Shown: positions 9,675 to 43,880, counted from the first letter of the stretch. The stretch is 44,537 bases of DNA from a phage (GCA_034027115.1 GCA_034027115.1_4703.1); one strand, 5' to 3'. Translations and numbers: made by a program. Notes: generated from the letters alone by a model not told the origin.

Positions 9675-9697
9675 ATTTACCGGACACTATAGGATAG
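9675..9697 (+). promoter_or_regulatory. Phage RNAP promoter (ATTTACCGGACACTATAGGATAG).
   Basis: Matches the window's own consensus and the SP6-type CACTATAG core. Confidence 0.6.
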
Positions 9698-9839
9698 CCG
9701 TCGGAGACGGGAAAGAAAAGGGAAGATAAAGGATATAAAAGGAAGTAATAGGTATTAAAGCCTATATAGGTTATCTAGGAATACCTATTACCTTCTTCCT
9801 TCCTCTTATTACTACTTAGAGGAAGGGCAGATCTAGGTT

Positions 9840-9855
9840 GTCTCACATGTGAGAC
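9840..9855. repeat. Copy 2 of palindrome GTCTCACATGTGAGAC.
   Basis: Exact sequence read; again directly upstream of a promoter-like site. Confidence 0.9.
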
Positions 9856-9860
9856 TTCGT

Positions 9861-9883
9861 ATTTACCGGACAGTATAGATAAG
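9861..9883 (+). promoter_or_regulatory. Phage promoter-like site, variant (ATTTACCGGACAGTATAGATAAG).
   Basis: One core mismatch (CAGTATAG instead of CACTATAG); second of two tandem promoters after the RNAP gene. Confidence 0.5.
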
Positions 9884-9908
9884 ACTAACTTACTTTGGAG
9901 ATTTAACC

Positions 9909-10037
9909 ATGCGCAACTTCGAAAAGATGGCCCGTAAAGCTAACCGTTTTGACATGGAAGAAGGGCAGAAGAAAGGCAAGAAGCTGAATAAAACTGTCCG
10001 TGACCGTGCATCTAAACGCGCTGCGTGGGAGTTCTAA
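9909..10037 (+). CDS. Possible small basic protein (42 aa) directly upstream of primase-helicase.
   Basis: GGAGA SD 8 nt upstream of ATG; K/R-rich; stop 3 nt before the primase ATG; below the ORF-track length cutoff. Confidence 0.35.
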   Translation: MRNFEKMARKANRFDMEEGQKKGKKLNKTVRDRASKRAAWEF

Positions 10038-10040
10038 GTT

Positions 10041-12029
10041 ATGGCTATTATTCAGAATGTACCGTGTCCTGCCTGTCAAAAGAATGGACATGATATTACT
10101 GGCAACCATCTTATGATATTTGAGGATGGCGCTGGTTACTGTAACCGTGGTCACTTCCATGATAATGGGAAGCCTTATTACCATAAGCCAGAGGGTGGCA
10201 CCGAGATAACCGAGTTACCTATTACTGGCAATATCAAATATACACCTTCTCAATTCAAAGAAATGGAGAAGGAAGGGAAGATAAGCGACCCTAAGCTACG
10301 CGCCATCGCTCTTGGTGGTATGCGTATGAAAGACCGTTGGGAGGTCATGAATGAGCAAGAAAGGGCAGACCAAGAAGCAGAGTGGAAACTTGATGTTGAA
10401 TGGTTCCTCACGCTTAAGCGTAAGAACCTTGTATCCCGTCACATTCGAGGTGACATCGCAGCAATGTACGATGTGCGCGTTGGACACGATGAAGAGGGAA
10501 GAGTCAACCGTCACTATTATCCACGATATGAAAAGGGTGTGCTTGTTGGAGCAAAATGCCGGACGTTGCCGAAGGATTTTAAGTTCGGACACCTAGGTAA
10601 ACTCTTTGGTATGCAAGATCTTTTCGGTATGAACACTTTGTCTCACGTGTTAGACAAGGGGAGACGAAAGGATTGCTTGCTTATTGTAGGCGGTGAACTT
10701 GATGCACTAGCAGCGCAGCAGATGCTCCTTGATTCTGCCAAGGGTACTAAGTGGGAAGGCCAGCCATACCATGTATGGTCTGTCAACAAAGGCGAGTCTT
10801 GTCTTGAAGAGATAGTGCAAAACCGTGAGCATATCGCCCAATTCAAGAAGATTATATGGGGTTTTGATGGAGATGAGGTAGGGCAGAAGCAGAATCAGCA
10901 AGCGGCTCGCCTGTTTTCTGGCAAATCCTATATCCTTGAATACCCCTCTGGTTGCAAAGATGCTAACAAGGCATTGATGGCTGGCAAGGCCAAAGAGTTT
11001 GTTGATGCATGGTTTAATGCCAAGTCATCTGATGAAGTCTTTGGTAGCCAGATTAAATCTATCGCCTCTCAAAGGGATAAGCTCAAGGCTGCACGTCCAG
11101 AGCAAGGACTATCATGGCCTTGGCCTAAGCTGAACAAGGTAACGCTAGGTATTCGTAAGAACCAACTTATCATTGTAGGCGCAGGCTCTGGTGTAGGTAA
11201 GACTGAGTTCCTTCGTGAAGTAGTTAAGCACCTCATTGAAGAACACGGTGAATCTGTAGGCATCATTTCGACAGAAGACCCGATGGTCAAGGTGTCCCGT
11301 GCTTTTATCGGCAAGTGGATTGATAAGCGTATTGAGTTACCGCCAACCAACGACCCGAAAGAAGATGGATACCGTGAGGTGTTCGACTACACCGAGGAAG
11401 AGGCTAACGCCGCCATTGATTATGTAGCTGATACAGGTAAGCTGTTTGTAGCTGACCTAGAGGGTGACTATTCGATGGAAAAGGTAGAGCAAACTTGCCT
11501 AGAGTTTGAGGCTATGGGCATTTCTAATATCATCATTGATAACTTAACGGGGATTAAATTAGATGAGCGTGCTTTTGGTGGGAAGGTTGGTGCACTTGAT
11601 GAATGCGTCAAGCGGATTGGTACTATCAAAGACCGACACCCGGTTACTATATTCCTTGTATCACACCTTACACGTCCTCCGGCAAACCGTACCCAACACG
11701 AAGAAGGTGGCGAGGTTATCCTTTCTGACTTCCGAGGTTCAGGCGCTATCGGATTCTGGGCATCTTACGCCTTGGGGATTGAGCGTAATACAAGAGCTGA
11801 AACGCTTGATGAACGGACTACCACGTACATCTCATGTGTCAAAGACCGCGACCAAGGTATCTACACTGGAACCAAGGTCATGCTTAAGGGTGACATTCAA
11901 ACCGGACGTTTAATGGAACCACAAGCCCGTACTAAGTCATTTGATACAGGTGAAGCAAGGCAACAAGAAGTGCCGGATTTACCGGACACTATAGAAGAGA
12001 CAACTTTTGACGATGAACAGGAGTTTTAA
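10041..12029 (+). CDS. DNA primase/helicase (T7 gp4-like) with acidic C-terminal tail ending in Phe.
   Basis: N-terminal Cys4 zinc ribbon (CPACQKNGH...GYCNRGH), helicase Walker A (GAGSGVGKTEF), C-terminal ...TTFDDEQEF. Confidence 0.95.
   Translation: MAIIQNVPCPACQKNGHDITGNHLMIFEDGAGYCNRGHFHDNGKPYYHKPEGGTEITELPITGNIKYTPSQFKEMEKEGKISDPKLRAIALGGMRMKDRWEVMNEQERADQEAEWKLDVEWFLTLKRKNLVSRHIRGDIAAMYDVRVGHDEEGRVNRHYYPRYEKGVLVGAKCRTLPKDFKFGHLGKLFGMQDLFGMNTLSHVLDKGRRKDCLLIVGGELDALAAQQMLLDSAKGTKWEGQPYHVWSVNKGESCLEEIVQNREHIAQFKKIIWGFDGDEVGQKQNQQAARLFSGKSYILEYPSGCKDANKALMAGKAKEFVDAWFNAKSSDEVFGSQIKSIASQRDKLKAARPEQGLSWPWPKLNKVTLGIRKNQLIIVGAGSGVGKTEFLREVVKHLIEEHGESVGIISTEDPMVKVSRAFIGKWIDKRIELPPTNDPKEDGYREVFDYTEEEANAAIDYVADTGKLFVADLEGDYSMEKVEQTCLEFEAMGISNIIIDNLTGIKLDERAFGGKVGALDECVKRIGTIKDRHPVTIFLVSHLTRPPANRTQHEEGGEVILSDFRGSGAIGFWASYALGIERNTRAETLDERTTTYISCVKDRDQGIYTGTKVMLKGDIQTGRLMEPQARTKSFDTGEARQQEVPDLPDTIEETTFDDEQEF
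11977..11999 (+). promoter_or_regulatory. Phage promoter (ATTTACCGGACACTATAGAAGAG) embedded in the 3' end of the primase-helicase gene.
   Basis: Full consensus match; lies inside codons for ...VPDLPDTIEE. Confidence 0.6.
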
Positions 12030-12190
12030 TGGAAATTATTAAACCAGTATTGAATATCGGTATTGAGATCCTATTCATGCTTGTGATCGCAGATTATGCT
12101 GCACGATATGGCTTCAAGAAAGCAGTGAAACTTATCGTTGCATCTGGTTTTATGATGTCAATGTTCTTTATTGTAACACGCCTTATCTAG
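12029..12190 (+). CDS. Possible small membrane protein (53 aa).
   Basis: ATG overlaps the primase stop (TAATG); highly hydrophobic translation (ILFMLVIADY...FMMSMFFIV); below ORF-track cutoff. Confidence 0.35.
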   Translation: MEIIKPVLNIGIEILFMLVIADYAARYGFKKAVKLIVASGFMMSMFFIVTRLI

Positions 12191-12203
12191 TGTATTTATC
12201 AGG

Positions 12204-12227
12204 GCTTGTCTCACATGTGAGACAGGC
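12204..12227. repeat. Copy 3 of the palindrome, extended form GCTTGTCTCACATGTGAGACAGGC, followed by CTCTTATT.
   Basis: Exact read; extended stem of about 11 bp with one G-U pair; U-rich 3' flank suggests terminator or processing hairpin. Confidence 0.85.
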
Positions 12228-12256
12228 TCTTATTAAGTACATTAAATAACTGGAGA

Positions 12257-12946
12257 TTGATTATGTATAAATTAGTATTGAATGTAGGTGATTATGTTCG
12301 TAACATCAATGAAGCCTCACGTCGTTATCGTTGCCGTGGTGTAGTGGCTCGTGTAAGTGAGAACATGTATCATGTAGAATATGATGATGGTATTAAGGCT
12401 TCTTATCACAAGAAAACCGCACATAAATATCTTGAAAAGGTTGTAGAGGTAAGCAATCAATGTAAGTGCATACATGATGAGGTTTGCGATAAATGTGCTC
12501 GCCAGATGCTTAAGAATTTCCTAGCCCCTCTTTATTATGGTGCTGGTCCTCAAACACTAGCAGAGTACATGGCAGAAAAGAAAACCACACTCAAGAAAGA
12601 GCGTCGCAATGTAATCACTGGTAAGACTCAGAGTGAGATGATTAAGCAATGTGGCACTGCATTAGGTGTTACACAGTTCAATACTCGTGCATTGGGTAAA
12701 TCCACAGGACAAGCTATGGTGAAAATTGGTGAAGCTATGATGCACCCAAATGTGCCTGTGCGAATCTTGGATGTTGACTATGCAATCACAGAGCATGGCA
12801 CACCACGGCGTGTAGCTAATGATCATTTCGCCGACACTATAGAAGGTATTATTCGTAAGCAAGGGTTGAAGGGTCTTCACATCTTAAATGGTGAAGAATT
12901 ACTGTACCTGCCTATCGTTACTGAAGAAACATACGTGAATATCTAA
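12257..12946 (+). CDS. Hypothetical protein (229 aa).
   Basis: GGAG SD; uninterrupted ORF; no recognisable motif. A promoter-like ATTTCGCCGACACTATAGAAGG sits inside it at 12825..12846. Confidence 0.6.
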   Translation: MIMYKLVLNVGDYVRNINEASRRYRCRGVVARVSENMYHVEYDDGIKASYHKKTAHKYLEKVVEVSNQCKCIHDEVCDKCARQMLKNFLAPLYYGAGPQTLAEYMAEKKTTLKKERRNVITGKTQSEMIKQCGTALGVTQFNTRALGKSTGQAMVKIGEAMMHPNVPVRILDVDYAITEHGTPRRVANDHFADTIEGIIRKQGLKGLHILNGEELLYLPIVTEETYVNI

Positions 12947-12956
12947 GGAGTTAATC

Positions 12957-13175
12957 ATGACTAAGGTATTAATTTATATGCGTGGACCTCATAAATGCTA
13001 TGCAGTTGTAGCACCAAATGGCGTTAAGCCTTATCGTACTTCAAAAAGATTGGCATTAATAGGTGCTAGTAGTAGTGCAAGTTTCCAAATGGAACTTTTT
13101 GGTCATCGGACTGAAAGGCAATTCCGTGAGGATTTTAAAGTCATTGGCAGTTTCATGGTGAAATATGCAGAATAA
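12957..13175 (+). CDS. Hypothetical protein (72 aa).
   Basis: AGGAG SD upstream of ATG. Confidence 0.45.
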   Translation: MTKVLIYMRGPHKCYAVVAPNGVKPYRTSKRLALIGASSSASFQMELFGHRTERQFREDFKVIGSFMVKYAE

Positions 13176-13351
13176 ACATAGTCTTAGAATGTTCGATGGT
13201 CATGAAGACCTGCAAGCCAAGATTACTAACCAAGCCTTCCTGTTCGCACAGTTAACTATGGCTGAGGCCAAGAAGAATAGTCTCACTCGTGAACAGGTTA
13301 TCAAGGAAAGTGAAGTGAAACGTAAGATTCGCAGTCGATAAGTCAAGGGTT

Positions 13352-13367
13352 GTCTCACGTGTGAGAC
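13352..13367. repeat. Copy 4 of the palindrome, variant GTCTCACGTGTGAGAC, with extended stem and U-rich tail.
   Basis: Exact read: ggttGTCTCACGTGTGAGACagcc then ttttatc. Confidence 0.85.
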
Positions 13368-13492
13368 AGCCTTTTATCATGTTGATTGGAGGTGCATTAT
13401 GCCACGTGATTATGATTCTGATTGGGACTACTATGACTCAATGAATCCAAAACCAGAACGTTCAGATGATTACTACGAAACAGAGGCAATGT

Positions 13493-13711
13493 ATGAAAAC
13501 TATTAAAGTCAGTAAGGTTTGCTCTTGCGGTAAAGGTTATCGCAGTCGTATTGATGGTAAGTGTGGACATTGTAGGTCTAAGAAAGAGGCTGCTTTGTTT
13601 GACAAGTACCACAATGAATTAGCCTATAACTACCCACATCTAACACCTAATTCTTTATTAGGGCTTGGTTATAGGGCTAAATACTTTGGAGCAATCTATG
13701 AAATCAATTGA
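13493..13711 (+). CDS. Small Cys-rich (zinc-ribbon-like) protein, hypothetical.
   Basis: C-x-C...C-x-x-C pattern (VCSCGKGY...GKCGHCRSKK); start ambiguous (13466 or 13493). Confidence 0.4.
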   Translation: MKTIKVSKVCSCGKGYRSRIDGKCGHCRSKKEAALFDKYHNELAYNYPHLTPNSLLGLGYRAKYFGAIYEIN

Positions 13712-16244
13712 TTGGAAGAAGGAGGCAGAAGGTCGTATCCTCGTGATGGATGCGGAAGCTAAAGGACTCCTTGACGCTATCCGATATGGACACCGTGAAG
13801 ATGTGCATATCATTTGCTGCATGGATTTGCTTACTACCGAGGAGTTTCTCTTCTTTGACCCGTATGAGATGCGTGACCCTGAAGCAAGAGAACGCCTGAA
13901 GGAATGGGAAGGTCATCAAGACGGAACCTTGGTTGATGGTGTTAACTTCCTGAAGCATTGTGAAGCTATTGTGTCACAGAACTTCCTAGGGTATGACGGA
14001 CTTCTCTTTGAGAAAGCATTCCCTGATATTTGGAAAGGCTTTAACTATACCGAGAAGCGCGGTAAGGGCAGACTCCGTGCTGACCTGTGTCCGGTGCGAG
14101 TCATGGATACGCTGGTGATGAGTCGCCTGTTAAACCCCGATAGACGCCTTCCTCCGCAAGCATATGCCAAAGGTATGGGTAACGTCGCCCCTCACTCAAT
14201 TGAGGCGCACGGCATCCGTATAGGTCGCTATAAACCGGAGAACGAGGACTGGTCTAAACTAACTGACCACATGGTTCACCGTGTACGTGAGGACGTGGCG
14301 ATTGGTCGTGACTTGTTCCTCTGGCTCTTTAACGGGGAATGGATGGAGCACAAACGCCGTGGCGTGAATAAACGCACGGGCCTAGGCATTGAGACAGCCT
14401 TCCACATGGAGTCCATTGTGGCGCTGGAGATGAGCCGTCAGGCCGAGCGCGGGTTCCGTCTGGACATCGACAAGGCTTTGGCCCGATGCGAAGAATTGGA
14501 CGCTAAGATTGATGAGACAGTCGCAGCGTTCCGCCCTCACATGCCTATGCGTATCAAGTCTAAACCTTTTAAACCGGAAGAAAAGAATGAAGTATGCCAA
14601 CGCGCAAATGAGTATGGAGCTAGCAACAATATACCTACTGTCCTTGACCTCTCACACTTTCTTCATGCCGAGAGACGAGGAGATCGCAAGACAGTATGGA
14701 GTGTCACTACTAAGTCTGGTGATTGGTCGGCTAGTGTCAAGAAAGACTTTCCTCACCTTAGAGGAAACCGTAATGACACGCCAAGCATCAAGTGGATTGG
14801 CGCTTACTCGCCTGTTACTTTCGAAGAGATTCCCTTGGGTAACAGGGCTACAGTTAAGCAAGTGCTCTATAAGTATGGATGGAAAGGTGTTGAATTTAAC
14901 GATACCGAGCAAGCCCATCTCGATGAGCACGGAGTGTTACCAGAACCTTGGAGTGGTAAGATAAATGAAAAGTCCCTCACTTTATGGCAAGAAAGAGCCG
15001 CACGTGAAGGTAAAACAGTCCCTGATTGGTGCTTGGGTATCGCTGCATGGTACATACTCGTATCCCGTCGTGGTCAGATACTCAATCGTGGTGACGTTGA
15101 AGCCTTCAACGAGAAGGGAACGTGGCCCTCGCAGGTTGGTGTACGAAAGTGTCGCGGCCTTGTACCTGTAGCATTCAACAAGGAGCTAGGAATTACTGCG
15201 CAGCAATACTACGAGAGGTACGGATGTTGGCCTACGTCTGACAAAGATGACGGAGAGTGGCGTGTTCCAGCTGTTGCTATTAGTATTGGCACTTCTACGT
15301 TCCGTATGCGTCATCGTAACGTGGTTAATATTCCTGCCCGTGGCTTGTATCCTTTACGTGATTTATTCATAGCAGGGAAAGGCAAGCTAATCCTTGGTTG
15401 TGACGGTGCAGGTCTTGAACTGCGTGTCCTGTCTCACTTCATGAATGATCCTGAGTACCAAGAGATTGTACTGCACGGTGATATTCATACGCATAACCAG
15501 ATGAAGGCTGGTCTTCCTAAGCGTGATATGGCGAAGACGTTTATATACGCCTTCCTCTATGGTTCTGGTATAGCCAACCTTGCAGCAGTCTGCGGTGTTA
15601 CTGAGGAAGAAATGAAGGAAGTTGTGGCAAGATTCGAGATTGAACTACCGTCTCTTGCACGTCTTCGTGAGAATGTTATCGCACAAGGTAACAAGTTTGG
15701 CTACCTGCAAGCACCTGATGGGCATTGGGGTCGCATCCGCATGTCTGGTGGTGAACTTAAAGAGCACACGATGCTTAACGTATTACTCCAGATGACTGGC
15801 TCTTTGTGTATGAAATATGCATTAGTCAAGGCATTTGCAGTAATGCGCAAGGAAGGTGTAGCTTTGGATGCTATGGGAAATCCTTGTGGTGTGGCTAACG
15901 TGCATGATGAAATCCAGATGGAAGTTCCTGAAGAGGAGGTCTTGTATCTTAACTACGACCTACCTTTCACCTTAGATGGGTTCGAAACAGAGAAGGCTGC
16001 TGTGAAAGCAGTTTTCGATGCAGAGGAGAAACGTGTTCATGTGGATTCTGAAGGACGTATGTGGTCTGCTGCAAACCTCGTTAGCGTTGATGCTGATGCT
16101 GGTGTATTGCATTGCCAGCGCCGTTATCACCGTGCAGGTCATATCATTGCCGACGCCATGACTTGGGCAGGGCAGTATCTGAAGATGCGTTGCCCGATGG
16201 CAGGAGAATATAAGATTGGCGCAAGCTGGAAGGAAACACACTGA
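13698..16244 (+). CDS. DNA polymerase, family A (T7 gp5-like).
   Basis: Pol I motifs (KTFIYAFLYGSG; VHDEIQMEV); GGAG SD before ATG 13698 (the ORF track start at 13665 overlaps the upstream gene). Confidence 0.95.
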   Translation: MKSIDWKKEAEGRILVMDAEAKGLLDAIRYGHREDVHIICCMDLLTTEEFLFFDPYEMRDPEARERLKEWEGHQDGTLVDGVNFLKHCEAIVSQNFLGYDGLLFEKAFPDIWKGFNYTEKRGKGRLRADLCPVRVMDTLVMSRLLNPDRRLPPQAYAKGMGNVAPHSIEAHGIRIGRYKPENEDWSKLTDHMVHRVREDVAIGRDLFLWLFNGEWMEHKRRGVNKRTGLGIETAFHMESIVALEMSRQAERGFRLDIDKALARCEELDAKIDETVAAFRPHMPMRIKSKPFKPEEKNEVCQRANEYGASNNIPTVLDLSHFLHAERRGDRKTVWSVTTKSGDWSASVKKDFPHLRGNRNDTPSIKWIGAYSPVTFEEIPLGNRATVKQVLYKYGWKGVEFNDTEQAHLDEHGVLPEPWSGKINEKSLTLWQERAAREGKTVPDWCLGIAAWYILVSRRGQILNRGDVEAFNEKGTWPSQVGVRKCRGLVPVAFNKELGITAQQYYERYGCWPTSDKDDGEWRVPAVAISIGTSTFRMRHRNVVNIPARGLYPLRDLFIAGKGKLILGCDGAGLELRVLSHFMNDPEYQEIVLHGDIHTHNQMKAGLPKRDMAKTFIYAFLYGSGIANLAAVCGVTEEEMKEVVARFEIELPSLARLRENVIAQGNKFGYLQAPDGHWGRIRMSGGELKEHTMLNVLLQMTGSLCMKYALVKAFAVMRKEGVALDAMGNPCGVANVHDEIQMEVPEEEVLYLNYDLPFTLDGFETEKAAVKAVFDAEEKRVHVDSEGRMWSAANLVSVDADAGVLHCQRRYHRAGHIIADAMTWAGQYLKMRCPMAGEYKIGASWKETH

Positions 16245-16526
16245 TGGATAGGCTTGACATTATTTGCCTATTCTTCACTCTCTTTCTTACACTCCTTATG
16301 CTTGCTTGTTATGGGAGTATGAGACTAGATATACCTGATGAAGAAGAGGGTTACGACTAATGCAAACTGCTTTTATTATTCTTGGTATCATATTATTTAT
16401 GGTAGTACTCTGGGCCTTCTCTGGCATTGACCCGGATTGTGATGGTAACTACGACTGAGTTATACTCAAGGTCACTTACGAGTGGCCTTTATGGATAACT
16501 TATCCCTACTTATTTTGTCTAACATG

Positions 16527-16548
16527 ATTTACTGGACACTATAGAAGG
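16527..16548 (+). promoter_or_regulatory. Phage promoter, consensus copy (ATTTACTGGACACTATAGAAGG).
   Basis: Exact consensus in an intergenic position. Confidence 0.7.
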
Positions 16549-16613
16549 AAAGCCTAGACAATCTAGGTTTATAAGGTAGTATAGGTAATTAAGTAAATAT
16601 AGGAGATATAAAC

Positions 16614-16991
16614 ATGTCTATGGTAACTACTCTGGTATTTGTAGCTCAATACTTTCGTGGTCTGGCTAATAAGTTCAAGTCCAAGGCTATCAAAGTTATT
16701 GAGTCTCGCATCGAGGCAGTACAGGCAGAGCAAGTTAAAGTTGAAGAACATCGTAGTTCTAAAATGATTGACTGCCATAACCGCTACTATGCATCTCGTG
16801 ATGACCTTAATGCACGCCAAGTCAAAGAGGTTGAAGAGATGCTGGCACGTCACCAGCAAGAGCGCGACAGTCTGAAAGCTGAATTTGAAGAGAACAAGGC
16901 ATCCATCGCCCTTGTACATCAAGCCGCATCTGACAGCCTGAAGAAAGAGATTGTTATGCTGGAAATTGAGTTAGACAACCTGACCAAATAA
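16614..16991 (+). CDS. Hypothetical protein (125 aa), hydrophobic N-terminus plus coiled-coil.
   Basis: SD TAGGAG; heptad-like charged C-terminal region. Confidence 0.55.
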   Translation: MSMVTTLVFVAQYFRGLANKFKSKAIKVIESRIEAVQAEQVKVEEHRSSKMIDCHNRYYASRDDLNARQVKEVEEMLARHQQERDSLKAEFEENKASIALVHQAASDSLKKEIVMLEIELDNLTK

Positions 16992-17010
16992 TTACTGGAC
17001 ACTATAGAAC
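16990..17010 (+). promoter_or_regulatory. Phage promoter variant (AATTACTGGACACTATAGAAC).
   Basis: Near-consensus match immediately after the upstream stop. Confidence 0.55.
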
Positions 17011-17153
17011 AATAGGTCGGCTTAGTTCGGCCTATGATTGTAAAGTGTTGAACCTTATTGTGCATCTTGCACAACCCGATGCTATATCGGGCTTTCTAGC
17101 GAGTACATGCTTGTGCTCAGTACAAAGCTAACTGACAATAGGAGACTAAATAA

Positions 17154-17960: not shown

Positions 17961-17969
17961 GGAGAAAGG

Positions 17970-18188: not shown

Positions 18189-18189
18189 A

Positions 18190-18205
18190 GTCTCACATGT
18201 GAGAC
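18190..18205. repeat. Copy 5 of palindrome GTCTCACATGTGAGAC.
   Basis: Exact read; 15 nt upstream of a consensus promoter. Confidence 0.9.
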
Positions 18206-18220
18206 AAATCGGTGTCCGGT

Positions 18221-18243
18221 ATTTACTGGACACTATAGAAGAG
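18221..18243 (+). promoter_or_regulatory. Phage promoter, consensus copy (ATTTACTGGACACTATAGAAGAG).
   Basis: Exact consensus. Confidence 0.7.
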
Positions 18244-20358: not shown

Positions 20359-21358
20359 GCTTCGCAGCTTGTACAAAGACTCCGAGGTACTTGATGCAAT
20401 CGAGCAAGCTACCGACGAGAAAGGTAATGTTAATTACAATGAGATGGCACGTGTATTATCGTGTCACCCTGTGGGTAAGAAGATTACCCGCCAGTTGGCT
20501 CGATACTGGCATGGTCAATTCAAGAAGACCAAGAAGAATGGTGATTATTACCAGACCCTTCTGCAAGAAGATAAGCGTATCAAAGAAGAGCGTAAGCTCA
20601 GGACTCCTGACCGCTACGAGGATTTGGCTATTGTACCATTGCCTGACTCGCCTCATCGAAGTGTATTGGTAATCCCTGATACTCATGCACCTTATGAGCA
20701 TCCAGATACCTTAGAGTTCCTTGCAGCAGTCGCGGCACGTTACCGTCCAGATACAGTGGTTCACTTAGGAGATGAGGCAGATAAACACGCCCTCTCCTTC
20801 CATGACTCTGACCCGAATCTGGATAGTGCTGGCATGGAGCTAGAGAAGGCTCGTGTCTTCATGCACAAGTTGCACAAGATGTTCCCTGTGATGCGCCTGT
20901 GTCATTCTAATCACGGCTCTATGCACTTCCGTAAGGCAAGCGCCAAGGGTATTCCAGTGCAATATCTTCGCACCTACCGTGAAGTCTTCTTCCCAAATGG
21001 AGGTGGCGACCAGTGGGATTGGCAGCATACACATGTTCTTGAGTTGCCGAATGGCGAACAGGTGGCATTCAAGCATCAACCTGCTGGCTCTGTCCTAGCA
21101 GATGCAGCGCATGAGCGTATGAACCTTGTGTGTGGTCACTTGCACGGTAAGATGTCTGTGGAGTACGCACGTAATACACATGAACAGTATTGGGCTGTGC
21201 AAGGTGGCTGCTTAATTGATGAGTCATCCCGTGCATTTGCCTATGGGCGTGAGTCTAAATACAAGCCAGCATTAGGTTGTGTGGTTATTCTGGAGGGTGT
21301 ACCTCATATTGTCCCGATGCAAACCAATAGCGACAACCGTTGGATTGGCAAGATTTAG
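20353..21358 (+). CDS. Calcineurin-like metallophosphoesterase (start uncertain: TTG 20353 after AGGAGG, or a later ATG).
   Basis: Ordered motifs DTHAP, GDEAD, SNHG and GHLHG are the phosphoesterase signature set (DxH, GDxxD, GNH[DE], GHxH). Confidence 0.8.
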
Positions 21359-21373
21359 TTGACACTATAGAAC
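21353..21373 (+). promoter_or_regulatory. Phage promoter variant (ATTTAGTTGACACTATAGAAC).
   Basis: Overlaps the phosphoesterase stop codon; core CACTATAGAA intact. Confidence 0.55.
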
Positions 21374-22137: not shown

Positions 22138-23081
22138 ACATCTTCCAATTCCTAGGTCTTCCAGAAGACCACCGCAATCATCCATTCATGCTGGTGAAGC
22201 ATCGCGGTGAAGTTCCTGAGAAGAAACTTACTTTTCCATGTTATGCACAGGTGAAACGAGATGGAATATTCAGTGCTGTTGTGGTGCGCAATGATGGTGC
22301 TGTTGCCATCTTTGGTCGTACTGGTAAGAAGCTCGCAAATGTTGAATCCTTGGAAAAGACGTTTAGTGTATTTCCTGTCGGGTTGTATCTTGGTGAGTTG
22401 CAATCTATGGCTGTTGATGTTTATCTTGAAGCTCTGTCAGGAGTGGTAAACCCTAATCGTACAGAGCCACTTGACTTCATAGGCCAGCAGATTAAAGACA
22501 ACCTGTATATCGACTTCTTCGATATGTTAACTATTAAGGCATTCCATGATGGATTCACTGATGTTTCTTATCTCAAACGTTACGATGCTTTACATCGTCG
22601 CATCGGCGCCCATCTTAGCGGGTACAACGCTATCCTTCCTATTACTCCTTGCCATAATGAGCGAGAAGTTGAAGCGTTTGCGCAAGAGCAGATAGACGCA
22701 GGCCGAGAAGGTGCGGTATTTAAACTTGACGTGGAGTACGAAAGTGGGCACAAGGGCTATCGTCAAACGAAGATCGTTCGTATGGTATCTTATGACCTCA
22801 CCTGCATTGGGTGGGAGGAAGGAAAAGGTAAGTATAAAGGTAAAGTAGCTAATTTAATCTTTAAATGGAAAGGTGGTAAGTCCGTTAAGGCTATGCTGGG
22901 GCGTGGCTGGTCACATGAGGATGCAGCACAGATGTATCACGATATTAAACACGGTGGCGAACTAAACGTCATTGGGAAAATCTTCGCTGTTAAGGCGTTA
23001 CAGGAATCTAGTAAGGGAGTCCTGAGACTTCCCAAGGTTTCTGAACTTAGGTTTGATAAGGAAGTCCCTGATGTCTTCTAA
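22134..23081 (+). CDS. ATP-dependent DNA ligase.
   Basis: Active-site KxDG motif (QVKRDGIFSAV); GAAGGAGG SD. Confidence 0.85.
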   Translation: MNIFQFLGLPEDHRNHPFMLVKHRGEVPEKKLTFPCYAQVKRDGIFSAVVVRNDGAVAIFGRTGKKLANVESLEKTFSVFPVGLYLGELQSMAVDVYLEALSGVVNPNRTEPLDFIGQQIKDNLYIDFFDMLTIKAFHDGFTDVSYLKRYDALHRRIGAHLSGYNAILPITPCHNEREVEAFAQEQIDAGREGAVFKLDVEYESGHKGYRQTKIVRMVSYDLTCIGWEEGKGKYKGKVANLIFKWKGGKSVKAMLGRGWSHEDAAQMYHDIKHGGELNVIGKIFAVKALQESSKGVLRLPKVSELRFDKEVPDVF

Positions 23082-23556
23082 TCCAAATTATCGAAAACCA
23101 CCTCGTACACCGCCAAGACCACTTGCCTACTGTCCTTTTACTGGAAAGCTTTTCCGTAAGTTCAAAGATGGCTGGAGAGAAACAGGACTTAGCAGAAAGA
23201 GTGATGGATATTTACAGTGTAAAGTCGATGGTAAGACTGTAAGTGTTCATGTTTTAGCAATGAATATGATGGGTTATGACACTACCGGCTTTACAGTAGA
23301 TCACATAAATCATATACGCTGGGATAATAGGTTTATTAATCTACGTCTATTATCTCATAAAGATAATTGTTTAAATAGAGAGGCGATACATATAAGTAAG
23401 CTGCCGAGTGGTAACTACAGAGCGCGATGTGGAAATGTTCATCTTGGCGTATTTGAGGATAAGTTACTTGCTCGTGGTGCTATCCTATGGTATCGCCATA
23501 GGGGATTTAATAATGTTAAATTCAATGAAGGCAACGCGTGCCGTAGAAGTAGCTGA
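23071..23556 (+). CDS. HNH homing endonuclease.
   Basis: DHINHIRWDNRFINLRLLSHKDN HNH signature; overlaps the ligase 3' end. Confidence 0.8.
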   Translation: MSSNPNYRKPPRTPPRPLAYCPFTGKLFRKFKDGWRETGLSRKSDGYLQCKVDGKTVSVHVLAMNMMGYDTTGFTVDHINHIRWDNRFINLRLLSHKDNCLNREAIHISKLPSGNYRARCGNVHLGVFEDKLLARGAILWYRHRGFNNVKFNEGNACRRSS

Positions 23557-26995: not shown

Positions 26996-27018
26996 ATTTA
27001 CTGGACACTATAGAAGGG
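26996..27018 (+). promoter_or_regulatory. Phage promoter, consensus copy, upstream of the major capsid gene.
   Basis: ATTTACTGGACACTATAGAAGGG. Confidence 0.7.
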
Positions 27019-28277: not shown

Positions 28278-28285
28278 TACCTATG

Positions 28286-28318
28286 CCCTATCTACCTTGC
28301 GTAGGTAGGGTTCTTTTT
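28286..28318 (+). terminator. Putative rho-independent terminator after the capsid gene.
   Basis: CCCTATCTACC-ttgcgta-GGTAGGG followed by TTCTTTTT. Confidence 0.55.
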
Positions 28319-35161: not shown

Positions 35162-35177
35162 GTCTCACATGTGAGAC
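35162..35177. repeat. Copy 6 of palindrome GTCTCACATGTGAGAC (extended stem, U-rich tail).
   Basis: Exact read: ggcttGTCTCACATGTGAGACaggtctttatg. Confidence 0.9.
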
Positions 35178-38406: not shown

Positions 38407-39368
38407 TGAGTTATACTTTCACAGAACATATAGCCAACGGTACGCAAGTAACCTATCCCTTTAGATTTGCTGGCAGGGATAAAGGCTATCTTCGTGCCTC
38501 AGATGTGATAGTGGAATCTCTTCAAGGTAACACTTGGATTGAGGTTACATCTGGCTGGCAACTAACTGGCACGCACCAGATTACTTTTGATGTAGCACCA
38601 GTTGCAGGTTTGAAGTTCCGTATTCGAAGGGAAGTACAAAAGGAGTATCCATACGCTGAGTTTGACCGTGGTGTTACCTTGGATATGAAGTCTTTAAATG
38701 GTTCTTTCATTCATATACTGGAGATTACACAGGAGTTACTTGACGGGTTTTATCCAGAAGGATACTTCATTAAACAGAATGTAAGCTGGGGCGGCAATAA
38801 GATTACTGATTTGGCTGATGGCACAAATCCTGGAGATGCAGTAAATAAAGGGCAGCTTGATGCCATCGACAAGAAGCATACAGATTGGAACGCCAAACAG
38901 GACATTGAGATTGCTGGCCTTAAGGCTGGTATGACTTCTGGTATTGCGCACAGAACTGTTCCTTGGTACACGATAGCCAAAGTTGGTGAGATTTCCGTAA
39001 AACCACCTTATGAATTTCAAGATGCACTAGTTTTCCTTAATGGGGTGTTGCAGCACCAAATTGTAGGCGCATACTCTATAAGCAACAACACTATCACTTT
39101 CGCAGAGCCGCTTGTGGCGGGTACAGAGGTGTATGTGCTGATTGGTAGTCGTGTGGCTACATCTGAACCTAATATTCAGTTAGAGTTGAACTTTGACTTA
39201 GTAGAAGGCCAACAAGTAGTACAGATTGGCTCTGCATTTAAGTACATTGAGGTCTACCTTGATGGATTATTACAACCTAAACTTGCTTATCAGGTAGACG
39301 GTGACATTGTTACTTTCTCAGAAAGAGTACCAGAATGCCGGATGACTGCTAAGATTATCACAGCATAA
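38406..39368 (+). CDS. Tail fibre N-terminal-domain homologue acting as tailspike adaptor.
   Basis: GGAGG SD; ATG overlaps upstream stop (TGATG); about 320 aa, the size of a gp17 N-terminal domain without a receptor-binding part, as in SP6-like phages where separate tailspikes dock on an adaptor. Confidence 0.8.
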   Translation: MSYTFTEHIANGTQVTYPFRFAGRDKGYLRASDVIVESLQGNTWIEVTSGWQLTGTHQITFDVAPVAGLKFRIRREVQKEYPYAEFDRGVTLDMKSLNGSFIHILEITQELLDGFYPEGYFIKQNVSWGGNKITDLADGTNPGDAVNKGQLDAIDKKHTDWNAKQDIEIAGLKAGMTSGIAHRTVPWYTIAKVGEISVKPPYEFQDALVFLNGVLQHQIVGAYSISNNTITFAEPLVAGTEVYVLIGSRVATSEPNIQLELNFDLVEGQQVVQIGSAFKYIEVYLDGLLQPKLAYQVDGDIVTFSERVPECRMTAKIITA

Positions 39369-39377
39369 GGAGGTGGG

Positions 39378-39572
39378 ATGATTAACTCCGAACTGGTAGA
39401 TAGTGGTGTGAAGCTTGCGCCACCTGCACTCGTATCAGGTGGGTACTTCCTCGGTATCAGTTGGGATAATTGGGTGTTAATAGCAACATTCATTTATACC
39501 GTGTTGCAAATTGGGGACTGGTTTTATAATAAGTTCAAGATTTGGAGGGAGAAGCGTGAGCGTACACAATAA
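39378..39572 (+). CDS. Holin (T7 gp17.5-like, class II).
   Basis: AAGGAGG SD; WVLIATFIYTVLQIGDWF resembles the T7 holin core (WFYVAAIAYTVVQIG); basic C-terminus. Confidence 0.75.
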   Translation: MINSELVDSGVKLAPPALVSGGYFLGISWDNWVLIATFIYTVLQIGDWFYNKFKIWREKRERTQ

Positions 39573-39855
39573 ACATGCAGCTACAGAGGACGAGGTTGGC
39601 ATTCTGCATGGTGCTATTACCAAAATCTTCAATAAGAAAGCACAGGCAATACTGGACACTATAGAAGAAGACCCTGATGCAGCATTACATTTAGTGTCTG
39701 GTAAGGATATTGGTGCGATGTGTAAGTGGGTTCTTGATAACGGCATTACCGCCACACCTGCTGCACAGCAGGAAGAGTCCAAGTTATCTAAGCGCCTCAA
39801 GGCTATCCGAGAGGCATCCAGTGGTAAGATTATTCAGTTTACAAAAGAGGAGTGA
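39556..39855 (+). CDS. Putative terminase small subunit (positional call; GTG start after GGAGGG).
   Basis: About 99-aa ORF between holin and large terminase as in T7 gene 18; no motif I can verify. A promoter-like AATACTGGACACTATAGAAGAAG lies inside at 39646..39668. Confidence 0.45.
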   Translation: MSVHNKHAATEDEVGILHGAITKIFNKKAQAILDTIEEDPDAALHLVSGKDIGAMCKWVLDNGITATPAAQQEESKLSKRLKAIREASSGKIIQFTKEE

Positions 39856-39856
39856 T

Positions 39857-40300
39857 ATGCATAGATGGTGTGAATCTCAAGGTTATACCATCTTACCTTC
39901 TGGTGTCATCCTTTCAAAGGGTGGCACCCCTCTCAAACCATTCAAGGCGGGTAGGGGTTATTTAGCAGTTAAAATTAAAAATAAAGAAGGTAAATGGCGT
40001 AATGTCTATGTTCATCAATTAGTGGCTTATAAGTATTTACCTAAAACTAATAATGAAGTAAACCACAAAGACGGCGATAAGCACAACAATGATGTTAGCA
40101 ACTTGGAGTGGGTAACAAGAAGCGAGAATAACTATTTAAAATGCAATGGAAATGATAGGAGTGCCTTAAATAGCTATTTAGCAAGATTAAAAGATTGCTT
40201 CTTGCAAGGTAAGGGTGTAGCAGAAACCGCTAGACTTACTGGTAAAAGTGAACCAAGAGTTTCTTCTCTCTTTAAGGAGTGGCGAAATGGCAAAGGCTAG
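39857..40300 (+). CDS. HNH endonuclease inserted between the terminase subunit genes.
   Basis: AGGAG SD; NHKDGDKHNNDVSNLEWVTRSEN HNH signature; overlaps the large terminase start. Confidence 0.8.
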   Translation: MHRWCESQGYTILPSGVILSKGGTPLKPFKAGRGYLAVKIKNKEGKWRNVYVHQLVAYKYLPKTNNEVNHKDGDKHNNDVSNLEWVTRSENNYLKCNGNDRSALNSYLARLKDCFLQGKGVAETARLTGKSEPRVSSLFKEWRNGKG

Positions 40301-42185
40301 AGAATCACAGGCAGAGGCATTAAAGCGGTGGGAAAACCTTAAAGAACTACAAGACACTTTTAAATATACAGCGGAAGGTTTGCTTCTCTTTGCAGATACA
40401 GTTATCCATAACTTGATTGCAGGCAACCCTCATCTGATTCGTATGCAGGCTGATATCTTGAAGTTCCTATTCTACGGACATAAGTATCGCCTCATCGAAG
40501 CGCCTCGTGGTATCGCTAAGACAACACTATCAGCAATCTATACGGTATTTCGTATTATCCACGAACCTCATAAGCGTATCATGGTTGTATCCCAAAACGC
40601 TAAGCGAGCAGAGGAAATCGCAGGTTGGGTAGTTAAAATCTTCCGTGGCCTAGACTTCCTTGAGTTTATGCTGCCGGATATCTACGCAGGGGACCGTGCA
40701 TCCGTTAAGGCGTTCGAGATTCATTACACCCTACGTGGTAGTGATAAGTCTCCTTCTGTATCCTGTTACTCAATCGAAGCAGGTATGCAAGGTGCTCGTG
40801 CGGATATTATCCTAGCGGATGACGTAGAGTCGATGCAGAATGCTCGTACGGCAGCGGGCCGTGCCTTGCTTGAGGAACTGACTAAGGAGTTTGAATCTAT
40901 CAACCAGTTTGGGGATATCATTTACCTTGGTACGCCTCAGAACGTAAACTCTATCTACAACAACCTACCTGCTCGTGGTTACTCTGTTCGTATCTGGACT
41001 GCGCGTTACCCTTCAGTAGAGCAAGAGCAATGTTATGGCGACTTCCTTGCACCTATGATTGTTCAAGATATGAAGGACAACCCAGCACTTCGCTCAGGGT
41101 ACGGGTTGGATGGTAATAGTGGTGCACCTTGTGCCCCTGAAATGTATGATGATGAAGTCCTGATTGAGAAGGAAATCTCTCAGGGTGCTGCTAAGTTCCA
41201 GCTTCAGTTCATGCTTAACACTCGCATGATGGATGCTGACAGATACCCATTACGCCTGAACAATCTAATCTTCACCTCGTTTGGTACAGAGGAAGTCCCT
41301 GTGATGCCTACGTGGAGTAATGATTCCATAAACATCATTGGTGATGCACCTAAGTATGGTAACAAGCCTACGGATTTCACGTACAGACCTGTAGCTCGCC
41401 CATACGAATGGGGTGCTGTCTCCCGCAAGATTATGTATATTGACCCTGCGGGTGGTGGTAAGAACGGAGACGAGACGGGTGTAGCCATCGTATTCCTGCA
41501 CGGCACATTCATTTATGTGTATCAGTGCTTTGGTGTACCTGGCGGATACCGAGAGTCGTCCCTGAATCGCATTGTGCAGGCCGCAAAGCAGGCGGGTGTT
41601 AAAGAGGTATTCATTGAGAAGAACTTTGGTCATGGCGCGTTTGAGGCGGTAATTAAGCCGTACTTTGAACGAGAGTGGCCTGTAACTCTGGAAGAGGATT
41701 ACGCCACCGGACAGAAAGAGTTGCGTATCATTGAGACGCTGGAGCCGCTCATGGCAGCACATAGGCTTATCTTCAATGCAGAGATGGTGAAGTCAGACTT
41801 TGAGTCGGTACAGCACTATCCGCTTGAACTACGCATGTCCTACAGTCTTTTCAATCAAATGTCGAACATAACGATTGAGAAGAACAGCCTCCGGCACGAT
41901 GACCGCCTAGACGCCCTGTATGGCGCTATACGGCAATTAACTTCTCAGATAGACTATGACGAGGTTACACGGATTAATCGCCTCAGAGCGCAGGAGATGC
42001 GCGATTACATCCATGCTATGAATACACCTCATCTACGCAGGGCAATGCTATATGGAGATTACGGTACTGAGCGAAGAGTGACCAACACTTCCGTAGCGAT
42101 GCAGCAGCGAGTTTACGGGCAGAACTACCGAAATAAATCGGCAAGCAGAAATACACTTTCTGCAAGGATTTCAAGGACTTATTAA
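40287..42185 (+). CDS. Terminase large subunit (T7 gp19-like).
   Basis: Walker A-like PRGIAKTT, ADDVES, YLGTPQ, KFQLQFMLN, IETLEPLMAAHRLIF and HDDRLDAL motifs match the gp19 family; AAGGAG SD before ATG 40287. Confidence 0.95.
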   Translation: MAKARESQAEALKRWENLKELQDTFKYTAEGLLLFADTVIHNLIAGNPHLIRMQADILKFLFYGHKYRLIEAPRGIAKTTLSAIYTVFRIIHEPHKRIMVVSQNAKRAEEIAGWVVKIFRGLDFLEFMLPDIYAGDRASVKAFEIHYTLRGSDKSPSVSCYSIEAGMQGARADIILADDVESMQNARTAAGRALLEELTKEFESINQFGDIIYLGTPQNVNSIYNNLPARGYSVRIWTARYPSVEQEQCYGDFLAPMIVQDMKDNPALRSGYGLDGNSGAPCAPEMYDDEVLIEKEISQGAAKFQLQFMLNTRMMDADRYPLRLNNLIFTSFGTEEVPVMPTWSNDSINIIGDAPKYGNKPTDFTYRPVARPYEWGAVSRKIMYIDPAGGGKNGDETGVAIVFLHGTFIYVYQCFGVPGGYRESSLNRIVQAAKQAGVKEVFIEKNFGHGAFEAVIKPYFEREWPVTLEEDYATGQKELRIIETLEPLMAAHRLIFNAEMVKSDFESVQHYPLELRMSYSLFNQMSNITIEKNSLRHDDRLDALYGAIRQLTSQIDYDEVTRINRLRAQEMRDYIHAMNTPHLRRAMLYGDYGTERRVTNTSVAMQQRVYGQNYRNKSASRNTLSARISRTY

Positions 42186-42205
42186 TTACTGGACACTATA
42201 GAAGG
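42184..42205 (+). promoter_or_regulatory. Phage promoter immediately after the terminase gene (AATTACTGGACACTATAGAAGG).
   Basis: Near-exact consensus; positionally like T7 phiOR. Confidence 0.7.
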
Positions 42206-42346
42206 AAGGCCCAGATAATAAGAGAAAATAATAGGTAATATATAGTTTAACCTAGGTTATATAGGTATGCCTTAGTATGGGTGTACTCCTGTACACCCTA
42301 TTCCTTACTACCTTACTATATTTACATAATAGGAGAGAGAGAGACA

Positions 42347-42625
42347 ATGGCTAAGGATTATAGTAGTCAACCATTAACAGGTAAGTCTAAGAGAGAGCAG
42401 GTACAACCTGTAAGTGAAGAACTAATGCTTCCGGTAATCAAAAAAGAGGAAGCTAGTAAGAAAAGCAATGCTATTAATGATGCCACCAAATCAGGTAAAC
42501 AGAAAGGTGCAATGGTGTGCCTTGAAGGGAAAGATGGTATATTGAAGATTGCTATCGCGGTTGATGGCAAAGAAGATTCAGAGTGGAAGTTAGTAACAGT
42601 GGTATCAACTGTTAAACCATTTTAA
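42347..42625 (+). CDS. Small protein, paralogue A (about 92 aa) with SGKQKGAMV-LEG motif.
   Basis: AGGAGAGAGAGAGA leader then ATG; shares a near-identical 27-nt segment (tcaggtaaacagaaaggtgcaatggt) with the next gene. Confidence 0.6.
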   Translation: MAKDYSSQPLTGKSKREQVQPVSEELMLPVIKKEEASKKSNAINDATKSGKQKGAMVCLEGKDGILKIAIAVDGKEDSEWKLVTVVSTVKPF

Positions 42626-42643
42626 GATAAGGAGGAAGATTAC

Positions 42644-42934
42644 ATGGCTGAATATGGTACTGCAGGTTCTGTTACTGGTCAGGTTTTTCGAGTAAAAGCA
42701 GTACAAACTATTGCAACGGCAATCCCGATGCCTGTTGTTAAAGCAGCAGACCTTAATAAAAAAGATCACCCTATCAACATCAAACATTTATCAGGTAAAC
42801 AGAAAGGTGCAATGGTTGCTCTTGAGACAGATGCCGAAACCTTATGTATTGCTGTTGCACGTGGTAGTGAACCAACAGACCCTTGGGATGTAACTGGCAT
42901 GGAATCGACCGCTGTCATTCCAACAGGTGGATAA
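42644..42934 (+). CDS. Small protein, paralogue B (96 aa) with SGKQKGAMV-LET motif.
   Basis: TAAGGAGG SD; same conserved segment as paralogue A. Confidence 0.6.
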   Translation: MAEYGTAGSVTGQVFRVKAVQTIATAIPMPVVKAADLNKKDHPINIKHLSGKQKGAMVALETDAETLCIAVARGSEPTDPWDVTGMESTAVIPTGG

Positions 42935-42936
42935 TA

Positions 42937-43281
42937 ATGCTTAACAAATACTTCAAGCGCCGTGAGTTCGCTTGCCGTTGTGGGTGCGGTACATCCACTG
43001 TTGATGCTGAATTACTACAAGTAGTCACAGATGTGCGTGAGCACTTTGGTTCTCCTGTAGTTATCACTTCGGGGCACCGCTGTGCTAAGCACAATGCTAA
43101 TGTAGGAGGGGCTAAGAACTCCATGCATCTTACTGGTAAGGCTGCTGACATTAAGGTACGAGGCATCTTACCTTCTGATGTACATAAGTATCTTACTGAT
43201 AAGTACCAAGGCAAGTATGGTATTGGTAAGTATACCTCCTTTACTCATATTGATGTACGTAACGGGTGTGCACGATGGTAG
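42937..43281 (+). CDS. Endolysin, peptidase M15-type zinc peptidase.
   Basis: SGHRCAKHNANVGGAKNSMHLTGKAADIKV matches the M15 signature (His/Asp zinc ligands); start taken at ATG 42937 (ORF track frame begins 42883). Confidence 0.85.
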   Translation: MLNKYFKRREFACRCGCGTSTVDAELLQVVTDVREHFGSPVVITSGHRCAKHNANVGGAKNSMHLTGKAADIKVRGILPSDVHKYLTDKYQGKYGIGKYTSFTHIDVRNGCARW

Positions 43282-43389
43282 GTTGTGTTGCATGGTGTGA
43301 ACGCATGGTTGCTAAGGCTTCAGAGGAAGGCAACTATGAAGATTGGCAGAACTACTCAACTTTATTAGCTCAATGGAAAGAGAGATGCA

Positions 43390-43539
43390 ATGAAAAAGCT
43401 GTTCAAATCTAAGAAGGTTGTAGGTGCACTAGTTGCATTGGCAATTGCTCTTGTTTCTGTAGGTCTTGGTGTAGACCTTGGCTCTGGCACGGAATCCTCT
43501 GTGACAGATGTGGTCTGCCAAGTGATCACCTGTGAATAA
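43390..43539 (+). CDS. Possible small membrane protein (49 aa) in the lysis cluster.
   Basis: Basic N-terminus followed by one hydrophobic helix (VVGALVALAIALVSVGLGV); weak SD; below ORF-track cutoff. Confidence 0.35.
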   Translation: MKKLFKSKKVVGALVALAIALVSVGLGVDLGSGTESSVTDVVCQVITCE

Positions 43540-43753
43540 GTTTCTAGAAGTGCTGGCAGGTCTTATTGGCCTGCTTGTCTCTGCTAAGAAGAAACAAGAA
43601 GAGAAGGAGGCACAAAGTGAAGCGAATCATGTTAGTGACAATCCTGCTGATTGGTTCGCTGACCACTTCCGGGTGTCAGCAGGCGTTACCAGAGAAAGCA
43701 ATGGTGAAACCTCTGAGGCCGACGCTGACGGAAGTTTACGAGGTAGACGATAA
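43532..43753 (+). CDS. Candidate i-spanin (Rz-like); start uncertain (GTG).
   Basis: N-terminal transmembrane segment FLEVLAGLIGLLVSA then a charged region; contains the o-spanin candidate in another frame. Shorter than typical Rz proteins. Confidence 0.45.
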   Translation: MNKFLEVLAGLIGLLVSAKKKQEEKEAQSEANHVSDNPADWFADHFRVSAGVTRESNGETSEADADGSLRGRR

Positions 43754-43823
43754 GGTCTGCTTTAGTAAGCCTGACGCTACAAAAATTAGGTTTGTATATT
43801 CTTTCGCTAGAACGCGGATATAA
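43629..43823 (+). CDS. Candidate o-spanin (Rz1-like outer-membrane lipoprotein) overlapping the i-spanin candidate in a different frame.
   Basis: MLVTILLIGSLTTSGC: short hydrophobic signal with lipobox-like TSGC; Pro-containing mature part. Confidence 0.5.
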   Translation: MLVTILLIGSLTTSGCQQALPEKAMVKPLRPTLTEVYEVDDKVCFSKPDATKIRFVYSFARTRI

Positions 43824-43856
43824 TTAATACATAGCTTTATGTATCAGTGTCTTACG

Positions 43857-43880
43857 ATTTACTGGACACTATAGAAGAGG
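43857..43880 (+). promoter_or_regulatory. Phage promoter, consensus copy, upstream of the tailspike gene.
   Basis: ATTTACTGGACACTATAGAAGAGG. Confidence 0.7.

Follow-up and report, generated by a model that had tools for sequence, protein, structure and literature searches.

The phage DNA considered here (GCA_034027115.1_4703.1), a stretch of 44,537 nucleotides whose full length is referred to as the window, encodes a T7-like RNA polymerase (gene 7) and carries, dispersed along the same strand, a family of 21-base repeats related to the promoters of phage SP6. The conserved genes of phage K1-5 are all present, in order and on the plus strand (gene map of the window), and Vectrevirus genomes match the window at 95–97% identity over 88–95% of its first 25 kb. 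Position 1 of the K1-5 genome corresponds to window position 3745, the 234-bp direct terminal repeat of K1-5 maps once (3745–3979), and a tail-spike gene crosses the arbitrary end-to-start junction of the window. The window thus represents a circularly permuted Vectrevirus genome (K1-5/K1E group, Autographiviridae, subfamily Molineuxvirinae). We interpret the repeat family, with a probability of approximately 0.9, as the set of middle and late promoters of an SP6-related Vectrevirus phage (K1-5/K1E type), a set that is read by the phage's own T7-like polymerase. The polymerase gene, its specificity loop, the promoter sites (numbered such that the G located 17 bases past the start of the 21-base motif is +1) and the terminator-like hairpins are located as follows:

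5592–5612, plus strand: degenerate promoter-like site ATTTAGCTGACACTATAAGAG, with A at +1; upstream of the polymerase gene and overlapping the end of gene 4
6956–9583, plus strand: RNA polymerase gene (gene 7, 875 amino acids; Pfam RNA_pol and RPOL_N)
9158–9265, plus strand: segment coding for the specificity loop (from the translation and from MAFFT and phmmer alignments)
9591–9614, plus strand: terminator-like hairpin and T-run directly 3' of the polymerase gene (−18.2 kcal/mol, z-score −4.8)
9675–9695, plus strand: promoter ATTTACCGGACACTATAGGAT, +1 at 9692; the first promoter past the polymerase-gene terminator
9861–9881, plus strand: promoter ATTTACCGGACAGTATAGATA, +1 at 9878, with G for C at −5; upstream of gene 8
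11977–11997, plus strand: promoter ATTTACCGGACACTATAGAAG, +1 at 11994; within the 3' end of the primase/helicase gene (10041–12029)
12825–12845, plus strand: promoter ATTTCGCCGACACTATAGAAG, +1 at 12842; within the 3' end of gene 10 (12263–12946)
16527–16547, plus strand: consensus promoter ATTTACTGGACACTATAGAAG, +1 at 16544; upstream of gene 15
16990–17010, plus strand: promoter AATTACTGGACACTATAGAAC, +1 at 17007; overlapping the gene 15 stop codon, upstream of gene 16
18221–18241, plus strand: consensus promoter, +1 at 18238; upstream of gene 18
21353–21373, plus strand: promoter ATTTAGTTGACACTATAGAAC, +1 at 21370; overlapping the gene 22 stop codon, upstream of gene 23
26996–27016, plus strand: consensus promoter, +1 at 27013; directly 5' of the major capsid gene
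28285–28311, plus strand: terminator-like hairpin and T-run directly 3' of the major capsid gene (−17.3 kcal/mol, z-score −3.4)
39647–39667, plus strand: promoter CAATACTGGACACTATAGAAG, +1 at 39664; inside the small terminase gene (39556–39855)
42184–42204, plus strand: promoter AATTACTGGACACTATAGAAG, +1 at 42201; overlapping the large terminase stop codon
43857–43877, plus strand: consensus promoter, +1 at 43874; upstream of the tail-spike module

A scan of the window with the 21-mer ATTTACTGGACACTATAGAAG, in which up to three mismatches were allowed, returned 10 matches, all on the plus strand, where 0.01 would be expected by chance. The core CACTATAGAAG with at most one mismatch gave 12 matches against an expectation of 1.06, and the −9 to +1 core GACACTATAG, again with at most one mismatch, recovered the 12 strong sites together with the degenerate site at 5592, the latter being conserved at the corresponding location in both K1-5 and K1E and present in a diverged form in SP6. 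The strong copies fit ATTTAC[T/C]GGACACTATAGAAG (approximately 21 bp), all 12 are located on the plus strand, and each of them (12/12) possesses C or T at position −11. They are co-directional with the genes, the plus strand being the coding strand of all conserved genes, and they are placed upstream of genes or gene blocks. The list of copies in the original prediction was recovered as regards all 12 strong sites and the site at 5592, with the correction that the copy reported at 39646 starts at 39647; the further copy proposed near 5940 was discarded, as this sequence (5939–5958, ATTTACTTACACTATATAAG) lacks one base, carries T at +1 and coincides in part with a sigma-70-like match (5941–5970), and is thus probably not a phage promoter. 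It had also been stated that several copies lie inside coding sequence, and this was borne out for 11977 (helicase), 12825 (gene 10) and 39647 (small terminase), with 16990, 21353 and 42184 additionally overlapping stop codons. The SP6 consensus given there for comparison, ATTTAGGTGACACTATAGAAG, proved to be right when checked in the SP6 genome. Near-matches on the minus strand are most simply regarded as coincidences of coding sequence; an example, AGTTCTGTGACACAATAG in the DNA polymerase gene, has A for T at −4 and is also conserved in SP6. One such antisense near-match, AGTTCTGTGACACAATAGCTT (13963–13983, minus strand), is located inside the DNA polymerase gene and has A for T at −4; SP6 and all Vectrevirus loci share it, most simply as a by-product of conserved coding sequence. 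A comparison of the whole window with Rfam returned nothing.

The bases at −12 to −10 divide the promoters into sub-types. CCG is found at 9675, 9861 and 11977, before DNA-metabolism genes, and CTG at seven sites (16527, 16990, 18221, 26996, 39647, 42184 and 43857), which precede genes 15, 16 and 18 and the structural, packaging and tail-spike genes; among these, the promoter at 39647 is positioned upstream of an HNH endonuclease open reading frame and the large terminase gene. The exceptions in the window are GCC at 12825 and GTT at 21353, where the −12 and −10 bases are SP6-like but T occupies −11. Both sub-types are conserved across the 20 Vectrevirus loci compared (CTG at 79 sites, CCG at 55).

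In the proposed transcription scheme, host RNA polymerase would transcribe the early region from approximately window position 3745 (the left end), gene 7 included, and the gene 7 polymerase would then initiate at the G of each 21-base motif. The CCG-type promoters (9675–12845) would drive the DNA-metabolism genes, and the CTG-type promoters (16527 onwards) the structural, packaging and tail-spike genes. Transcription would proceed rightward throughout, with hairpin terminators past the polymerase and capsid genes; hairpins at these two places match the layout of T7-like phages, and the one at 28285–28311 is placed like T-phi in T7. By analogy with the T7 complex, the N-terminal AT-rich recognition loop of the polymerase would bind ATTTA at −17 to −13, the specificity loop would read positions −12 to −8 in the major groove, and CACTATA would constitute the shared melting and initiation region.

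The gene 7 polymerase is 99% identical to that of K1-5, 98% to that of K1E, 86% to that of SP6 and 35% to that of T7 (MAFFT alignment), and its specificity loop is identical to the loops of K1-5 and K1E. The original prediction had proposed alignment of this loop as a check on a distinct promoter specificity, and the loop is indeed not identical to that of SP6: the sole non-conservative difference is Ser747 (nucleotides 9194–9196), where SP6 has Arg. This residue aligns with N748 of T7 by two independent methods, i.e. MAFFT with the T7 and SP6 enzymes and phmmer against T7 RNA polymerase chains (1aro_P). Conservative differences from SP6 are present at Glu753 (Asp in SP6) and Ile761 (Val in SP6), and at the positions corresponding to T7 R756 and Q758 the window polymerase and that of SP6 alike have Lys and Ser. 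The AT-rich recognition loop differs from that of SP6 only at Arg68 (Lys in SP6), a near-identity that fits the ATTTA shared at −17 to −13. Structural and genetic work on T7, including the T7/T3 specificity switch, has established that N748 contacts promoter positions −10 and −11. Furthermore, across the polymerase family, T7 position 748 is coupled to promoter positions −11 and −10 by direct coupling analysis (PMC11880802). Ser747 may thus be the cause of the changed base preference at −11.

To relate loop and promoter across relatives, 29 loci from viral contigs and further complete phage genomes were grouped by loop sequence and their promoter bases were tallied; the tally covers 30 loci, of which 20 have the Ser-type loop (190 sites) and 10 the Arg-type, SP6-like loop (101 sites). 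At position −11, the Ser-loop sites display C (93), T (93), G (3) or A (1), i.e. a pyrimidine in 186 of 190 cases, whereas the Arg-loop sites display G (99) or A (2), and both of the sites with A have C at +1 and are not promoters. At −12 the counts are C 139, G 49 and T 2 for the Ser-loop group and G 70, C 15, T 10 and A 6 for the Arg-loop group; at −10 they are G 135, T 35, C 16 and A 4, and T 70, G 20, A 10 and C 1, respectively. Position −11 alone is therefore diagnostic between K1-5-type and SP6-type promoters, since −12 and −10 overlap. The original prediction had set the whole −12 to −10 block apart, and although the consensus difference it described (GGT in SP6 versus CTG or CCG here) holds, its diagnostic part is confined to −11.

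Further loop variants within the subfamily are accompanied by further promoter variants. The polymerase of L017 (IMGVR_UViG_3300045988_000861), which is 83% identical and has Phe at the T7 R756 equivalent, is associated with promoter ATTTGTGTTGCACTATAG; L005, L023 and L033 have TAATAGTGGCGAGTATAG (form of the Klebsiella F4M1D group, TAATAGTGGCGAGTATAGAAG), L021 has AATTAGGGCGGACTATAG (family form AATTAGGGCGGACTATAGAAC), and L020, of the Proteus type, has AATTAGAGACCACTATAG (family form AATTAGAGACCACTATAGAAG). This indicates that loop and promoter co-evolve in the Molineuxvirinae. Together, L017, L005/L023/L033, L021 and L020 constitute a natural series of polymerase–promoter pairs in one subfamily.

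Several points weigh against the interpretation given above. The evidence for promoter use in this exact genome is that of its sequence. The PDB copy searched contains no solved structure of an SP6-group polymerase, and because of this the residue–base contacts are drawn from alignment to T7. K1E- and SP6-type enzymes are reported to deviate from the rules derived for other T7-like polymerases (PMC11880802). The Ser/Arg split is essentially one evolutionary event between two clades, so that its link to −11 is a correlation only. Additionally, T or A is found at −11 in Arg-loop relatives at a greater distance (L005, TAATAGTGGCGAGTATAG; L020, AATTAGAGACCACTATAG), which rules out a general code in which Arg reads G at this position. 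Finally, polymerase No. 2049 (PMC13029058, 2026), whose published sequence was checked and contains the Ser-type loop, is active on its cognate promoter TATTTACTGGACACTATAG and inactive on the T3 promoter, yet in vitro it shows no discrimination against the SP6 promoter, on which its signal is 3.5% of that of T7, versus approximately 2% on its own consensus (PMC13029058).

Two Ser-loop Vectrevirus genomes bear on the same question, as they contain an exact SP6-consensus promoter, ATTTAGGTGACACTATAGAAG (L012, 2709–2729; L038, 4575–4595). Both copies occupy the same gene position as the window promoter at 43857, ahead of the tail spike, and the tail-spike cassette downstream of them differs. Upstream of these promoters is a conserved stretch of approximately 150 bp that is common to SP6 and K1-5, and similarity to the window ends just before the promoter. 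The recombination boundary is located just upstream of the promoter, as if the promoter had moved with the cassette. The Ser-type enzyme appears to tolerate G at −11. Taken together, the activity of No. 2049 on the SP6 promoter and the SP6-consensus promoters of these two genomes point to a shifted preference rather than to an exclusive specificity. The distinct specificity put forward in the original prediction is consequently upheld in one respect, in that the difference in the loop falls on the expected residue and loop type varies together with the base at −11 over the 30 loci, and falls short in another, in that a Ser-loop enzyme, No. 2049, uses the SP6 promoter.

Conversely, the Arg-loop genomes are without any real promoter lacking G at −11, which suggests that the SP6-type enzyme requires this base. 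The literature searched yielded no data for SP6 polymerase on this promoter, and the literature citing SP6 promoter mutagenesis contained nothing on −12 to −10. A tentative extension, which we regard as possible though doubtful, is that recognition in the SP6 group is asymmetric, such that Arg-loop enzymes strictly need G at −11 and Ser-loop enzymes have lost this requirement and accept both promoter types. Such asymmetry would fit the SP6-consensus promoters ahead of foreign tail-spike cassettes in L012 and L038 as well as the behaviour of No. 2049 on the SP6 promoter. If it were true, tail-spike cassettes acquired by recombination from SP6-like phages, and bringing their promoter along, would be expressed immediately in a Vectrevirus, and exchange of host-range modules would be eased.

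Among the alternative explanations, the one that survives best, although it is unlikely, holds that the specificity difference is real and set by residues other than Ser747, for example by Glu753/Asp, Ile761/Val, the N-terminal domain or several of the approximately 14% of substituted positions. The grafting of three key K1E or SP6 residues into T7 polymerase, which yielded no active pairs (PMC11880802), is in keeping with this explanation, as are the distant Arg-loop relatives without G at −11. However, Ser/Arg is the only non-conservative change in the loop and is situated at the canonical contact position for −10/−11, and the AT-rich loop contributes no difference beyond Arg68 versus Lys. 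It is more improbable that the −12 to −10 difference is neutral, with both polymerases reading both promoters about equally and the two forms reflecting drift and shared ancestry within clades. The relative signals of No. 2049, the exact SP6-consensus promoters upstream of the tail-spike genes of L012 (2709) and L038 (4575), and the overlap between clades at −12 and −10 speak for neutrality. Against this, −11 partitions near-perfectly over approximately 12 independent sites per genome, a concerted change that is hard to envisage without selection by the polymerase; the apparent requirement of the SP6-type enzyme for G at −11 argues in the same direction, as does the location of the sole non-conservative loop change at the residue that in T7 reads −10/−11. 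The notion that the repeats are some other dispersed element (a packaging, replication or recombination signal) has nothing specific in its favour beyond the presence of some copies in coding sequence and of the tail-spike copy at a recombination boundary, and it is effectively refuted, since the copies contain CACTATAG, the initiation core known from SP6 and T7 promoters that were defined by experiment, are all co-directional with and just upstream of genes or blocks, and have the same sequence as a promoter that works in vitro and in cells with K1-5-type polymerases.

The preferred reading, namely that of a promoter set served by the phage's own polymerase, is also the one to which comparison with known systems leads. 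The site lists of K1-5 (AY370674, L001) and K1E (AM084415, L003) match that of the window one for one in gene order, and the genomes are syntenic with it throughout. Nearly all sites are the same 21-mer, and ATTTACTGGACACTATAGAAG precedes the capsid gene in all three genomes; a few individual sites differ by single bases, as in K1-5, whose helicase site reads GATACTATAG and whose gene 16 site has CTA. The window differs from K1-5 and K1E in its extra HNH genes and its other tail-spike set, whereas the promoter system itself shows no difference. SP6 and the window have the same ATTTA at −17 to −13, the same block from −9 to +1 (GACACTATAG) and the same GAAG start; their sites are also equal in number and stand in the same places with respect to genes. 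The SP6-type promoters are set apart from those of the window group by G rather than C/T at −11, with weaker preferences at −12 (G versus C) and −10 (T versus G). In the strict sense (Zindervirus type), SP6 promoters have G at −11, within GGT, GGG, CGT or AGT at −12 to −10, and this G is absent from all 13 sites of the window; likewise, the Arg that SP6 has at the T7 N748 equivalent is replaced by Ser747. Promoters of the T7 group (Studiervirinae) are of the TAATACGACTCACTATAG type, with CT at −9/−8, whereas the sites of the window have GA at −9/−8 and ATTTA at −17 to −13. Judged by its sequence on every feature tested, the window set is to be placed as a member of the K1-5/K1E promoter family and not as a strict SP6 promoter set.

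The T7/T3 switch (T7 N748, T3 D749) follows the same logic as the window/SP6 pair, in that related polymerases differ at the 748 equivalent and their promoters at −11/−10. It differs in the residues and bases concerned, the latter pair combining Arg/Ser with G/pyrimidine, and in that the SP6 promoter is still accepted by the Ser-type enzyme; for the Ser/Arg residue of this pair, a causal role is putative.

The promoter–polymerase pair is already known, and the finding is real but ordinary. Transcription from the same promoter sequence by near-identical enzymes has been published (PMC13029058, PMC12231593, PMC6412113). K1E and K1.5 polymerase–promoter pairs have served for expression in the C3P3 system (PMC6412113), for the design of insulated promoters, which involved a large mutant library (PMC12231593), and for a virus rescue platform (PMC13453018). 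K1E and SP6 were placed in separate specificity clusters, which are defined by residues 748, 756 and 758 (T7 numbering) together with promoter bases −12 to −8 (PMC11880802, 2025). Since the pair has thus been described and used as an orthogonal expression system, there is little new biology in it. The GenBank records of K1-5, K1E and SP6 carry no annotated promoter features, and the practical value of the present analysis lies in a full promoter and terminator map for the annotation of this genome and in the use of −11, instead of the whole −12 to −10 block, to separate K1-5-type from SP6-type promoters. Ser747 versus Arg is, furthermore, the obvious residue to test in the engineering of SP6-group polymerases.

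Further features of the genome were noted outside the promoter system. The tail-spike gene that crosses the junction runs from approximately 43960 to position 1273; its homology is to the K5 lyase of K1-5, over the C-terminal two thirds of that protein. A second tail-spike gene (1358–3409) encodes a protein of 683 amino acids with a pectate-lyase-like domain and a C-terminal Peptidase_S74 chaperone domain; save for a weak C-terminal match, this protein is distinct from the K1 endosialidase that K1-5 and K1E possess, and for this reason the host capsule specificity probably differs. Two additional open reading frames with an HNH endonuclease domain (Pfam HNH_3) were identified at places where K1-5 has none, one after the ligase gene (23053–23556) and the other between the small and large terminase genes, directly 3' of the promoter at 39647 (39710–40300); both are likely to be homing endonucleases. 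Near the left end of the genome, upstream of the early genes, two good sigma-70-like matches are present at 4372–4400 (TTGACA-17-TACTAT) and 4956–4984 (TTGACA-17-TACATT), i.e. where early promoters for the host polymerase would be expected, although the regional total of such matches is not above chance.

A second repeat family is formed by the 16-bp palindrome GTCTCACATGTGAGAC, of which the window contains eight copies versus 0.21 expected (4322–4337, 9657–9672, 9840–9855, 10640–10655, 12208–12223, 13352–13367, 18190–18205 and 35162–35177). Three copies are situated 2–15 nucleotides upstream of phage promoters (9675, 9861 and 18221), and one is inside the helicase gene. In three copies located in intergenic gaps, the flanks extend the palindrome to 13-bp hairpins (−17.6 to −19.7 kcal/mol), which are followed by U-rich tracts and lie approximately 25–35 nucleotides before the next start codon. 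The palindrome occurs at the same gene positions and with the same sequence in K1-5 and K1E; its form in SP6 is GTCTAAC..GTTGGAC, and in other Molineuxvirinae GTCCAAC..GTTGGAC. Pairing of the arms is mostly maintained in each lineage, in the SP6 form by means of a G-U pair on the plus strand only, and the arm changes look compensatory. The maintained pairing and the plus-strand G-U pair favour a sequence-conserved hairpin of RNA or single-stranded DNA over a plain double-stranded operator, and a processing, attenuation or protein-binding site is a candidate role. The palindrome sequences were not mentioned in the open literature searched and had no Rfam match, and the family may merit a look of its own. 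Lastly, the two promoters after the polymerase gene, both of which have the palindrome in front of them, flank a non-coding stretch of approximately 150 bp (9692–9840) that is purine-rich and AT-rich. This stretch is a candidate replication origin by analogy with T7, its position matching that of the T7 primary origin (downstream of phi1.1A and 1.1B).

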